NCBI GenBank assembly: GCA_012798365.1
Contig: JAAZNH010000162.1
Span: forward strand, 1 to 12,186
From: Methanomicrobiales archaeon
GTDB taxonomy: Archaea > Halobacteriota > Methanomicrobia > Methanomicrobiales > Methanospirillaceae
DNA: 12,186 nt
Direction of reading: 5' to 3'
The notes beneath the pieces are model-generated. The model was not told where the DNA came from, made no database searches, and was given only the letters and a program-made list of their open reading frames with translations. The translations under genes and the position numbers were made by a program. Positions 3,910 to 5,322 of this stretch are shown here, one piece after another (position 1 is the stretch's first letter; each line of letters begins with the position of its first letter).

Positions 3910-4980
3910 ATGGCGACAAAGGAAAACGCCGGCTCCTGCTGCTCCTGCGGCACGGCACCGCAGGACCAGTCCTGCGGGTGCTCCGGAACTTCCGGGCAGG
4001 GTGCGGAGATCCGGGCAACGACCAGCACGCCTACATTCCAGAATAACCTCGATCACGTCCTTTCCCGCATGGGATGGAAACGCGAGAACCACCGCGTGGA
4101 ACCGGGCCTGTACCGGCTCGGCAGCCCGACTACGGAGTCGCCGGTCTTTGCCTCGGCAAATTACACGCTGAGCTTCGATGCCCTGCGCTCGTCACTCAGC
4201 TGGATCGATGCATGGATCCTTGTGCTGGATACCAAAGGGATCAATGTCTGGTGTGCAGCCGGCAAGGGAACGTTCGGAACCGCAGAACTGGTGAAAAGAA
4301 TCCAGGTCACCGGCCTTGCTGATCTTGTCAGCCACCATAAGATTATTGTCCCGCAGCTCGGGGCTCCGGGGATCTCCTGGCCGGAAGTAATGCGCCAGTC
4401 AAAATTCCTGGTGGAGTACGGCCCGGTCCGGGCCCGCGACCTGCCGGAGTACCTGAAGACCCGCAAGGCAACACCGGCTATGCGCAGGGTAGAGTTCCCC
4501 TTCTGGGACAGGCTGGTCCTGACACCCGTCGAATTTACGCACATTATGTGGCCGATGGTCATTGTCGCAGCAGTCCTCTGGTTCCTTGCCGGCCCGTTCG
4601 CAGCGTTCGCAACCATCTCTGCGGTTGTTGCCGGCACCGTGCTCTTCCCAATCCTGCTCCCGTTCCTGCCAACAAAGGATTTCTCGACCAAGGGGCTGAT
4701 CCTCGGCATTGTTGTCGCGCTGCCGTTTGCGTGGATATTCGGCACAACGCCCGGGCTTCCCGCATGGGCGCAACTCTCCGGTGCAGCTGCGGCCCTGCTC
4801 ATTATGCCGGCCGTTGTTGCGTACCTTGCGCTGAATTTTACCGGCTGCACAACCTTCACATCACGAACGGGCGTGAAGAAAGAAATTTTCCGGTACGTGA
4901 AAGTCATGGCCGCGATGGCCGTGCTCGGATCGCTTGCCGGCATCGCGCTTGGTGTGAGCAGGTTGAAGGGGGCGATCTGA
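3910..4980 (+). CDS. hgcA: Mercury methylation corrinoid protein HgcA
   Basis: The diagnostic cap-helix motif GINVWCAAGKG (NVWCAAGK = nt 4243-4266) sits in a CFeSP-like corrinoid-binding domain. It is followed by about 5 hydrophobic helices (WPMVIVAAVLWFLAG... to ...AVLGSLAGIALGV). ATG 3910 is preferred as the start; GTG 3901 is an in-frame alternative. Confidence 0.9.
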   Translation: MATKENAGSCCSCGTAPQDQSCGCSGTSGQGAEIRATTSTPTFQNNLDHVLSRMGWKRENHRVEPGLYRLGSPTTESPVFASANYTLSFDALRSSLSWIDAWILVLDTKGINVWCAAGKGTFGTAELVKRIQVTGLADLVSHHKIIVPQLGAPGISWPEVMRQSKFLVEYGPVRARDLPEYLKTRKATPAMRRVEFPFWDRLVLTPVEFTHIMWPMVIVAAVLWFLAGPFAAFATISAVVAGTVLFPILLPFLPTKDFSTKGLILGIVVALPFAWIFGTTPGLPAWAQLSGAAAALLIMPAVVAYLALNFTGCTTFTSRTGVKKEIFRYVKVMAAMAVLGSLAGIALGVSRLKGAI

Positions 4981-5322
4981 TTGCTGAACTCATACACGGA
5001 AACCAGTCTCGCGTACGATCCGGCACGCTGCATCAACTGCAAACGCTGCACGCAGGTCTGCCCGCACGCGGTTTTCACGGAAGGAAACGATCATGCTGAA
5101 CTGAAAAATCCAGCGTCCTGCATGGAGTGCGGCGCGTGTGCGCTCAACTGCCCGGTCCAGGCAATCACAGTACAGAGCGGGGTCGGTTGTGCATGGGCAA
5201 TGATCGGAGCAGCACTTCGTGGCAAAGATATGGACACGGAATGCAGCTGCGGGGGCGAGGATGGATCGTGTTGTGGAATCCGAGAGGTTCCAAAGAACCT
5301 CGAGGAAGAGAAGAATTGCTGA
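4981..5322 (+). CDS. hgcB: Mercury methylation ferredoxin HgcB (2x[4Fe-4S])
   Basis: Two CX2CX2CX3CP motifs are present (CINCKRCTQVCP and CMECGACALNCP). The second contains the HgcB signature C(M/I)ECGA at nt 5119-5136. The C-terminal tail has CSC...SCC and a terminal Cys. A TTG start directly abuts the hgcA stop (TGA|TTG), and there is no in-frame ATG or GTG before the first Cys motif. Confidence 0.85.
   Translation: MLNSYTETSLAYDPARCINCKRCTQVCPHAVFTEGNDHAELKNPASCMECGACALNCPVQAITVQSGVGCAWAMIGAALRGKDMDTECSCGGEDGSCCGIREVPKNLEEEKNC

Follow-up and report, generated by a model that had tools for sequence, protein, structure and literature searches.

The question raised by this locus is whether two adjoining open reading frames on an archaeal contig encode the mercury-methylation proteins HgcA and HgcB, or a corrinoid-protein paralogue and its ferredoxin, and what their neighbours say about regulation and native role. 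The window, i.e. the whole stretch of 12,186 nucleotides that was analysed, is an entire contig of a Methanomicrobiales metagenome-assembled genome (MAG), and the features between 125 and 5322 given below lie on its + strand. The original prediction had read a complete hgcA–hgcB pair in a methanogen context. Each item that it described is present where it had been placed, and the context holds as well, since NCBI labels the contig Methanomicrobiales archaeon and the best matches of all neighbouring genes are from Methanoregula. As judged from sequence, 3603–5322 is very probably an orthologous and apparently intact hgcC–hgcA–hgcB mercury-methylation module of a Methanoregula-like hydrogenotrophic methanogen. 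Equivalog HMMs for HgcA, HgcB and HgcC all pass their curated cut-offs, paralogue models all fail theirs, and a chance match is excluded by E-values of 6e-130 (HgcA) and 8.6e-34 (HgcB).

The hgcA gene (3910–4980) encodes a 356-aa corrinoid protein of mercury methylation. It starts at ATG 3910, the start taken by NCBI NMB78663.1 (356 aa), and has an alternative GTG start at 3901. The profile search proposed in the original prediction placed both proteins above cut-off: HgcA scored 433.1 bits against NCBIfam NF040863 (cut-off 275), with residues 35–346 aligned to profile positions 2–321 of 325, and HgcB scored 115.3 bits against NF040864 (cut-off 99). The cap-helix motif NVWCAAGK can be read directly at 4243–4266 (AAT GTC TGG TGT GCA GCC GGC AAG), exactly as claimed, and its Cys is residue 115. 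Columns N112–G123 are invariant across 31 homologues, and Cys115 is the predicted Co-thiolate ligand, a role taken from Cys93 of ND132 (PMC7305189). Homology to CdhD/CFeSP extends over residues 60–186; the CdhD domain is the sole Pfam match (residues 60–152), and a PDB sequence search with HgcA returned CFeSP chains only, over residues 62–184, with no experimental HgcA structure among the matches. Foldseek gave the HgcAB integrative model 9a0b_A as best match (E = 1.2e-17, 36% identity), followed by CFeSP over ∼130 residues. The transmembrane domain (4501–4965, residues 198–352) has five helices, in line with the roughly five C-terminal helices first proposed; hydropathy finds five segments, and an AlphaFold2 model of moderate confidence (mean pLDDT 68.8, below 50 in the cap helix at 110–121) places them at 198–227, 229–252, 258–279, 285–310 and 321–352.

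Some of these features could also suit a non-methylating paralogue, either a fused-type HgcAB-like protein split by a stop codon or a corrinoid protein of the CFeSP/acetyl-CoA pathway: hgcA and hgcB lie in the same frame with one TGA between them, superficially like an interrupted fusion, the NCBI name is ‘carbon monoxide dehydrogenase’, and Pfam shows just the CdhD domain. However, the fusion model NF043039 gave 200.3 bits for HgcA and 49.1 for HgcB (cut-off 285), and there are two ORFs rather than one fused polypeptide. The CFeSP gamma (CdhE) model gave 66.4 bits (cut-off 306) and aligned at profile positions 322–447 of 450 only, the PDB matches were confined to chain residues 318–441 of CFeSP, and HgcA has five transmembrane helices and none of the N-terminal Fe-S or TIM-barrel parts of CFeSP. 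Moreover, a single in-frame stop between the two genes is found in 11 of 79 ordinary hgcAB loci, the others having a 1-nt overlap. Reading the in-frame TGA as a read-through site or an interrupted fusion was rejected on the same count, on the prevalence of the TGATG-type overlap (41 of 59 archaeal loci) and on the failed fusion HMM. Hence the HMM cut-offs, as sequence-level evidence, effectively refute a paralogue, which we regard as extremely improbable. The phylogenetic placement that had been called for agrees with orthology: in a neighbour-joining tree limited to HgcA homologues, HgcA falls within the Methanoregula/Methanomicrobiales clade. Its best match, from a Methanoregula MAG, has 82% identity, while the values for M. 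formicica and for an M. hungatei MAG are 73% and 61%.

The hgcB gene (4981–5322) adjoins hgcA and encodes a 2[4Fe-4S] ferredoxin of 113 aa. It starts with TTG, and no other start codon is available from the in-frame stop up to the first cluster motif; NCBI NMB78664.1 is the identical 113-aa sequence, called from the same TTG. HgcB proteins are recognised by two CxxCxxCxxxCP motifs, a conserved Cys ∼12–13 residues past the second motif and at least one C-terminal Cys (PMC7305189), and we found all of these. The two motifs are read directly at 5029–5064 (CINCKRCTQVCP, residues 17–28) and 5119–5154 (CMECGACALNCP, residues 47–58), with cluster Cys at 17, 20, 23, 27, 47, 50, 53 and 57, and the CMECGA noted earlier lies exactly at 5119–5136, in frame with hgcB. 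Cys70 (5188–5190) is 13 residues beyond the last cluster Cys57, as is Cys73 in ND132, and with the C-terminal CSC...CC stretch (residues 88–98, nt 5242–5274) it delimits a Cys-rich region at 5188–5274; the tail Cys are C88, C90, C97, C98 and C113. The two [4Fe-4S] motifs and the C-terminal Cys cluster of the original prediction were thus borne out.

Immediately upstream lies hgcC (3603–3899), with 10 nt between it and the ATG of hgcA, encoding a 98-aa HgcAB-associated protein of AbrB/MazE/SpoVT fold that scored 129.8 bits against NCBIfam NF040962 (cut-off 70) and also matched Pfam MazE_antitoxin. Alignment shows a CGCSC...GC motif at its N-terminus, along with a conserved pair of Cys (CC). Of 60 loci that are archaeal or unassigned, 40 have this gene immediately 5′ of hgcA (29 of 39 in Methanomicrobiales), whereas none of 20 bacterial loci does. 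An apparent HgcC–HgcA fusion in locus L060 was rejected as an artefact of ORF extension, with an in-frame stop at 8106–8108 of that locus. Some 60 nt 5′ of the hgcC ATG we found a putative promoter/operator of hgcC–hgcA–hgcB (3533–3567), in which TTCTGA repeats spaced by 9 bp adjoin a TATA-like box (TATAAATA, 3560–3567); the exact repeat core TCTGATTTTTCTGA at 3542–3555 occurs once in the window. The pattern TC[TA]GA-N4-TC[TA]GA lies within 250 nt 5′ of hgcC in 35 of 41 loci, as against 0 of 40 in front of hgcA genes that lack hgcC, and there are only six further sites in 1.05 Mb; the promoter architecture of hgcC loci is conserved as a consensus. The repeats are likely to be the operator of the AbrB-fold HgcC, and the element argues for HgcC as a dedicated regulator rather than part of a toxin-antitoxin module. 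Its strict tie to hgcC across five archaeal orders offers a testable hypothesis for the regulation of archaeal hgcAB. The original prediction had valued the neighbours of hgcAB as clues but overlooked the actual ones: hgcC, the upstream element and the ars context. Elsewhere in the sequence, an Rfam scan of the whole window gave no match at gathering thresholds, tandem-repeat and composition scans gave nothing relevant, and a scan for sigma-70 promoters and intrinsic terminators gave shuffle-level counts, these being bacterial models that are not applicable to an archaeon. A literature search found nothing relevant on hgcC together with hgcAB.

The proposed mechanism is transferred from the characterised family. 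The CFeSP-like N-terminal domain of HgcA would bind a corrinoid with Cys115 of the NVWCAAGK cap helix as axial Co ligand, the five helices would anchor the protein in the membrane, and the 2[4Fe-4S] ferredoxin HgcB would reduce the HgcA cofactor to Co(I). A donor would then methylate the cofactor, and the methyl group would pass to Hg(II)-thiolate to give CH3Hg+, with Cys70 and the C-terminal CC pair of HgcB handling the metal. The three genes may form their own transcription unit behind the TATA-like box, which is flanked by the conserved repeats of the likely HgcC operator.

As originally claimed, hgcA and hgcB abut with zero spacer as TGA|TTG; this is a minor variant, with one extra T, of the usual 1-nt TGATG overlap. 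Among 59 archaeal loci, 41 overlap as TGATG or TAATG and six abut, one of which, L016, has the identical TGATTG junction. Translation of hgcB may be coupled to termination of hgcA, as had been suggested. A Shine-Dalgarno-like purine run lies within the last 14 nt of hgcA in 37 of the 59; here it differs by one base from that of relatives (GGGGGCGATC versus GGGGTGATC), and together with the rare TTG start this mismatch could lower the yield of HgcB.

Because an intact hgcA–hgcB pair is accompanied by the usual archaeal partner hgcC, the host is predicted to make methylmercury, and it probably does so. In culture, eight of nine hgcAB-bearing methanogens methylated Hg and one did not exceed controls, with rates that differ widely among them (PMC5893877). 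One can ask whether, in this host, orthologous hgcAB genes might be silent or of low activity, so that no measurable methylmercury would appear. The TTG start with its weakened Shine-Dalgarno-like run, the spread of rates with one negative methanogen in nine, and a TTCTGA element suggesting that the genes may normally be repressed all point that way. Nevertheless the catalytic residues are all intact, the NCBI gene call uses the same TTG, the same junction recurs in L016 and the promoter architecture is conserved, and we consider silence distinctly unlikely. With methylmercury production as the preferred reading, one more uncultured Methanoregula-like lineage joins the predicted producers, and three public names should be corrected: ‘carbon monoxide dehydrogenase’ to HgcA, ‘ferredoxin family protein’ to HgcB and ‘AbrB/MazE/SpoVT’ to HgcC. 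The pair is an ordinary further member of the known hgcAB family; earlier publications had described hgcAB in Methanoregulaceae, as well as the AbrB-like gene upstream and the connection with ars genes.

The hgcC–hgcA–hgcB genes stand at the end of a same-strand run of arsenic-resistance type (125–3493). By family matches it consists of a DGC-domain protein (125–571), DUF166 (568–1254), an ACR3 arsenite efflux protein (1297–2385), a LMW-PTP-type ArsC (2398–2805) and, as its last gene, starting 1 nt past the ArsC stop, a soluble MtrA-like cobamide-binding protein of 228 aa (2807–3493). The last scored 184.7 bits against NF002126, the soluble-homologue subfamily (cut-off 161). The true MtrA of the membrane Mtr complex was rejected as its identity, because TIGR01111 gave 120.4 bits against 249, the C-terminal 60 residues are hydrophilic and the neighbours are ars rather than mtr genes. 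Its His95 aligns with the cobalt ligand His84 of 5LAA, and Glu54 is replaced by Ala. The DGC, DUF166, ACR3 and ArsC genes recur as the same set beside hgcAB in L023 and in L081–L083. Downstream of hgcB, the 482-aa membrane protein and the ORFs in 7052–8467 matched no Pfam or NCBIfam family, and among 80 loci none of these is conserved beside hgcAB.

This neighbourhood raises the possibility that Hg methylation is a side reaction, and that in this lineage the module was selected for dealing with arsenic or metalloids, jointly with the neighbouring ars genes and the MtrA-like protein. The one-strand arrangement of hgcCAB behind DGC–DUF166–ACR3–ArsC–MtrA-like is consistent with such a role. Genes of ars type lie within 8 kb of hgcAB in 20 of 39 Methanomicrobiales loci as against 1 of 20 bacterial loci, and in the nearest relative hgcA overlaps the end of ACR3 within an ArsR-controlled run. 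Among loci with MtrA-like genes, ACR3-like genes are upstream in 57 of 72 related ones and hgcA is no more than 6 kb away in 21 of 80, with hgcAB at varying positions inside these MtrA-like/ACR3 clusters; in ND132, hgcAB has been shown to be regulated by ArsR and induced by arsenic (bioRxiv 10.1101/2022.10.17.512643). However, linkage is not function, and metal-resistance genes commonly form islands. The 109-nt gap between the ars run and hgcC carries its own promoter-like element, which parts hgcCAB from the run, and 59 of the 80 MtrA-like loci have no hgcA within 6 kb. In the library searched, no paper connects MtrA with hgcA, and there was nothing relevant on MtrA with acr3 in methanogens. 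On balance we hold a primary arsenic role to be rather unlikely, and mercury methylation by an orthologous hgcCAB module is the reading that we retain.

A tentative model, to which we give low odds, would make the Methanoregula-type hgcCAB and the arsenic-resistance cluster one functional unit, in which the Cys-rich AbrB-fold HgcC would sense a thiophilic metal or metalloid and control the operon through the TTCTGA repeats, and the soluble MtrA-like protein that travels with ACR3, ArsC, DUF166 and DGC would share the cobamide-dependent methyl-transfer chemistry of HgcA, for example as a methyl carrier or a metalloid methylase. If true, it would give a pointer to what HgcAB natively does and where its methyl group comes from, both long sought. 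The repeated embedding of hgcAB in ars clusters with an MtrA-like protein offers a lead on the native role and makes the published arsenic link more specific.

The reference pair, characterised by genetics and mutagenesis, is that of Pseudodesulfovibrio mercurii (Desulfovibrio desulfuricans) ND132. With it HgcA here shares the CFeSP-like corrinoid domain, the Cys cap helix and five transmembrane helices, and HgcB shares the dicluster ferredoxin plan, the C-terminal CC pair and the Cys placed 13 residues past the final cluster Cys; residue by residue, the motifs and the distances between Cys agree, with an offset of -3 in HgcB. In contrast to ND132, the host here is archaeal, HgcB ends in a longer tail that contains five Cys, the first ∼30 residues of HgcA form a Cys-rich tail (C10, C11, C13, C22, C24), and the gene upstream of hgcA is the AbrB-fold hgcC instead of an arsR-like regulator. 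The cultured Methanomicrobiales (Methanoregula formicica, M. boonei, Methanospirillum hungatei JF-1 and Methanosphaerula palustris) belong to the same hgcAB clade, whereas the present lineage is uncultured with its nearest sequence just 82% identical, has the junction TGA|TTG rather than TGATG, and carries the full DGC–DUF166–ACR3–ArsC–MtrA-like run upstream, in an exact order found only in L023/L149, L112 and L121. HgcAB-like fusions of the Pyrococcus furiosus type (NF043039), which are reported to be non-methylating, share the corrinoid domain, the transmembrane domain, the ferredoxin module and, with the present pair, a common frame, but here hgcA ends at a stop codon and hgcB has a start codon of its own, the arrangement of ordinary hgcAB loci, and the score stays below the fusion cut-off. 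The CFeSP large subunit (AcsC/CdhE) of the Wood–Ljungdahl pathway shares a homologous Rossmann-type corrinoid-binding domain of ∼125 residues; unlike it, HgcA lacks the N-terminal [4Fe-4S] and TIM-barrel parts, has a Cys in the cap helix and possesses a membrane domain. Finally, the AbrB/PrlF/MazE-like ‘TA gene’ that Zhang et al. 2023 (PMC10349881) describe upstream of archaeal hgcA, which equals the NCBIfam HgcC, is of the same family and in the same position as hgcC; here hgcC has no toxin partner and is preceded by the TTCTGA-repeat/TATA element found in this analysis.

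The window is one entire contig (12,186 nt) of a metagenome-assembled genome that NCBI labels Methanomicrobiales archaeon. It carries hgcA on the + strand from an ATG at 3910 to 4980 (with an alternative GTG at 3901), followed on the same strand by hgcB from a TTG at 4981 to 5322. Both motifs that the original prediction had read are exact on this strand, NVWCAAGK of HgcA at 4243-4266 and CMECGA of HgcB at 5119-5136. The two claimed [4Fe-4S] motifs of HgcB are present as complete CxxCxxCxxxCP at residues 17-28 and 47-58, followed by Cys70 and then by the claimed C-terminal cluster, the tail cysteines C88, C90, C97, C98 and C113. 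About five transmembrane helices had been claimed at the C-terminus of HgcA, and hydropathy and an AlphaFold2 model (mean pLDDT 68.8) gave five, at residues 198-227, 229-252, 258-279, 285-310 and 321-352. Because ORFs, motifs, cysteines and helices are all as described, that description was right throughout.

HgcA scored 433.1 bits against the NCBIfam equivalog NF040863 (cut-off 275) and HgcB 115.3 bits against NF040864 (cut-off 99), hence both exceed the curated cut-offs. Two paralogues of HgcA were considered and rejected, as the model of the non-methylating HgcAB-like fusion gave 200.3 against a cut-off of 285, and that of the gamma subunit of CFeSP, a corrinoid iron-sulfur protein, gave 66.4 against 306. 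Pfam matched only a CdhD-type corrinoid domain, and sequence matches in the PDB were CFeSP large subunits only, over residues 62-184. In the structure search, the top match of the HgcA model was 9a0b_A, the published HgcAB integrative model of Pseudodesulfovibrio mercurii ND132 (E = 1.2e-17, 36% identity, 332 columns), and CFeSP chains ranked after it with ∼130 columns aligned. The closest HgcA relatives are without exception from Methanoregula or unclassified Methanomicrobiales, with identities of 82% for the best match, 73% for M. formicica and 61% for an M. hungatei MAG. When placed phylogenetically, as had been proposed with the original prediction, HgcA nested within the Methanoregula/Methanomicrobiales clade of a neighbour-joining tree of 37 sequences, apart from Methanosarcinales, Methanocellales, Methanomassiliicoccales and bacteria.

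The genes abut with zero spacer as predicted (TGA|TTG), and they share one frame with a lone TGA between them. This arrangement could be read as a broken fusion or a site of read-through, which we reject since 11 of 79 loci are likewise in the same frame with a single stop. The TTG is the sole candidate start of hgcB, and the NCBI protein starts there too. Among 59 archaeal loci, the hgcA stop and hgcB start overlap as TGATG or TAATG in 41 and abut without a gap in 6, one of which (L016, a Methanosarcina MAG) has the identical TGATTG; the window junction thus differs from the common archaeal form by one extra T. Moreover, in 37/59 archaeal loci the final 14 nt of hgcA include a run of purines like GGGGTGATC, which we take to be complementary to the archaeal anti-Shine-Dalgarno at 16S rRNA 3′ ends; its counterpart in the window is GGGGGCGATC. 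From the conserved overlap or abutment and the purine run we infer, with good support, that translation of hgcB would be coupled to that of hgcA.

The original prediction omitted hgcC and the element upstream of it. The hgcC gene (3603-3899) encodes a 98-aa protein of AbrB/MazE fold (NF040962, 129.8 bits, cut-off 70) with CGCSC...GC at its N-terminus and a conserved CC pair, and it lies directly 5′ of hgcA in 40/60 loci that are archaeal or unassigned, against 0/20 bacterial loci. The 109-nt gap 5′ of hgcC is AT-rich and contains TTCTGA repeats with 9-bp spacing that lead into a TATA-like box (3533-3567, core 3542-3555; TGGAAAATTCTGATTTTTCTGAAATGTATAAATA), the box being ∼40 nt and the repeats ∼60 nt ahead of the hgcC ATG. 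The pattern TC[TA]GA-N4-TC[TA]GA is present in 35 of 41 species-representative loci with hgcC, across five archaeal orders, no more than 250 nt ahead of that gene and usually 53–62 nt from the start codon, and it is present upstream of hgcA in 0 of 40 loci without hgcC; only six further sites were found in 1.05 Mb. Loci with the element in equivalent position (L004-L061, L074, L097-L149) are found, and the element is common to Methanomicrobiales, Methanosarcinales, Methanocellales, Methanomassiliicoccales and Methanoperedens. A single pattern match within the window alone is not significant, so the case for the element comes from this positional association across loci. Judged from sequence, the repeats probably serve as operator for HgcC, a protein of AbrB fold, and 3533-3567 may constitute promoter and operator of an autoregulated hgcCAB unit; the literature examined yielded no account of the element. 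Downstream of the TATA-like box and ahead of the hgcC ATG, positions 3571-3600 form a perfect inverted repeat of 8 nt, GGAACTCC-N14-GGAGTTCC, with the likely Shine-Dalgarno GGAG within its 3′ arm. This repeat may act as a leader hairpin or else as a second operator. Differing inverted repeats occupy the equivalent place in other loci (L027, ATCCTCTT/AAGAGGAT; L028, CTCACA/TGTGAG; L121, GAAAC/GTTTC).

Flexible Cys-rich tails are present in all three proteins: CC.C...C.C at the N-terminus of HgcA (3937-3981, residues 10-24), CGCSC..GC of HgcC (3657-3680, residues 19-26), apart from its CC pair, and CSC...CC of HgcB (5242-5274, residues 88-98). Disorder is predicted for HgcA residues 1-31, and across 31 homologues C22 is invariant and C13 and C24 nearly so.

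Upstream, family matches on the + strand identify a DGC-domain protein (125-571), DUF166 (568-1254), an ACR3 arsenite exporter (1297-2385) and ArsC of the LMW-PTP type (2398-2805). A soluble MtrA-like protein (2807-3493, +) begins 1 nt past the ArsC stop; it lacks a membrane anchor and falls short of the model for true MtrA. In the alignment to the M. fervidus homologue (5LAA), the His that is the cobalt ligand there (His84) is kept, but Glu54 of its hydrogen-bond chain is replaced by Ala. We surveyed 80 metagenomic loci encoding close relatives (L084-L163), which are a regular part of Methanoregula ars-type clusters. An ACR3-type gene lies just 5′ of the MtrA-like gene in 57 of the 72 loci testable for the upstream gene, part of these matches having identity as low as 32–41%. 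In 21/80 loci hgcA is ≤6 kb away, and its position varies, before ACR3 or past the MtrA-like gene. No report of an MtrA-like cobamide protein regularly in ars/hgc clusters was found in the searchable literature, and we regard its presence there as a lead rather than a finding. Locus L023 has the gene order of the window plus ArsP. In the nearest HgcA relative (L081/L083, 4006-9502, 82% identical), hgcA overlaps the ACR3 3′ end by 8 nt and terminates a run of cupin, ArsP, thioredoxin-like, DGC, DGC and ACR3, which is divergent from an ArsR-type gene and lacks hgcC; there hgcAB seems to belong to the ars operon itself. Within the compared flanks, an ars-type gene is present in 20/39 Methanomicrobiales hgcAB loci versus 1/20 bacterial.

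Downstream, 5603-7051 encodes a 482-aa multi-pass membrane protein with many predicted spans and no Pfam or NCBIfam family, and none of 80 related loci has its gene next to hgcAB. The ∼1.4 kb at 7052-8467 has no recognisable gene and no Rfam match, and its ORFs at 7489-7851 (−) and 7557-8294 (+) match no family. A tungstate/molybdate-type ABC transporter occupies 8468-12060 (−), with WtpC-like and WtpB-like subunits beside two distinct binding proteins, TupA-like (8468-9529) and WtpA-like (at least 11686-12060), all matches being below equivalog cut-offs. Adjacency of these downstream genes to hgcAB is not conserved in the 80 loci.

The observation is confirmed and the hgcAB interpretation supported. 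NCBI names NMB78663.1 'carbon monoxide dehydrogenase', NMB78664.1 'ferredoxin family protein' and NMB78662.1 'AbrB/MazE/SpoVT family DNA-binding domain-containing protein', which under current NCBIfam models would become HgcA, HgcB and HgcC. The worth of the locus is this re-annotation and two modest leads, the hgcC-tied TTCTGA-repeat element and the MtrA-like gene within ars/hgc clusters. The neighbourhood features are largely published already: a general hgcAB–ars link (PMC7438021; bioRxiv 10.1101/2022.10.17.512643), and hgcC, reported as a putative regulator of the toxin-antitoxin type for archaeal hgcAB (PMC10349881). Because hgcAB was known in Methanoregula and 8/9 cultured methanogens with hgcAB methylated mercury when tested (PMC5893877), it is reasonable to predict that the host would produce methylmercury. 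Compared with ND132 HgcB, the cysteines follow the same pattern at a constant numbering offset of −3, and the equivalent of Cys73, essential in ND132, is present 13 residues past the last cluster cysteine (PMC7305189). With hgcAB of the window, a well-characterised family gains one more member, in a lineage already known to carry it.
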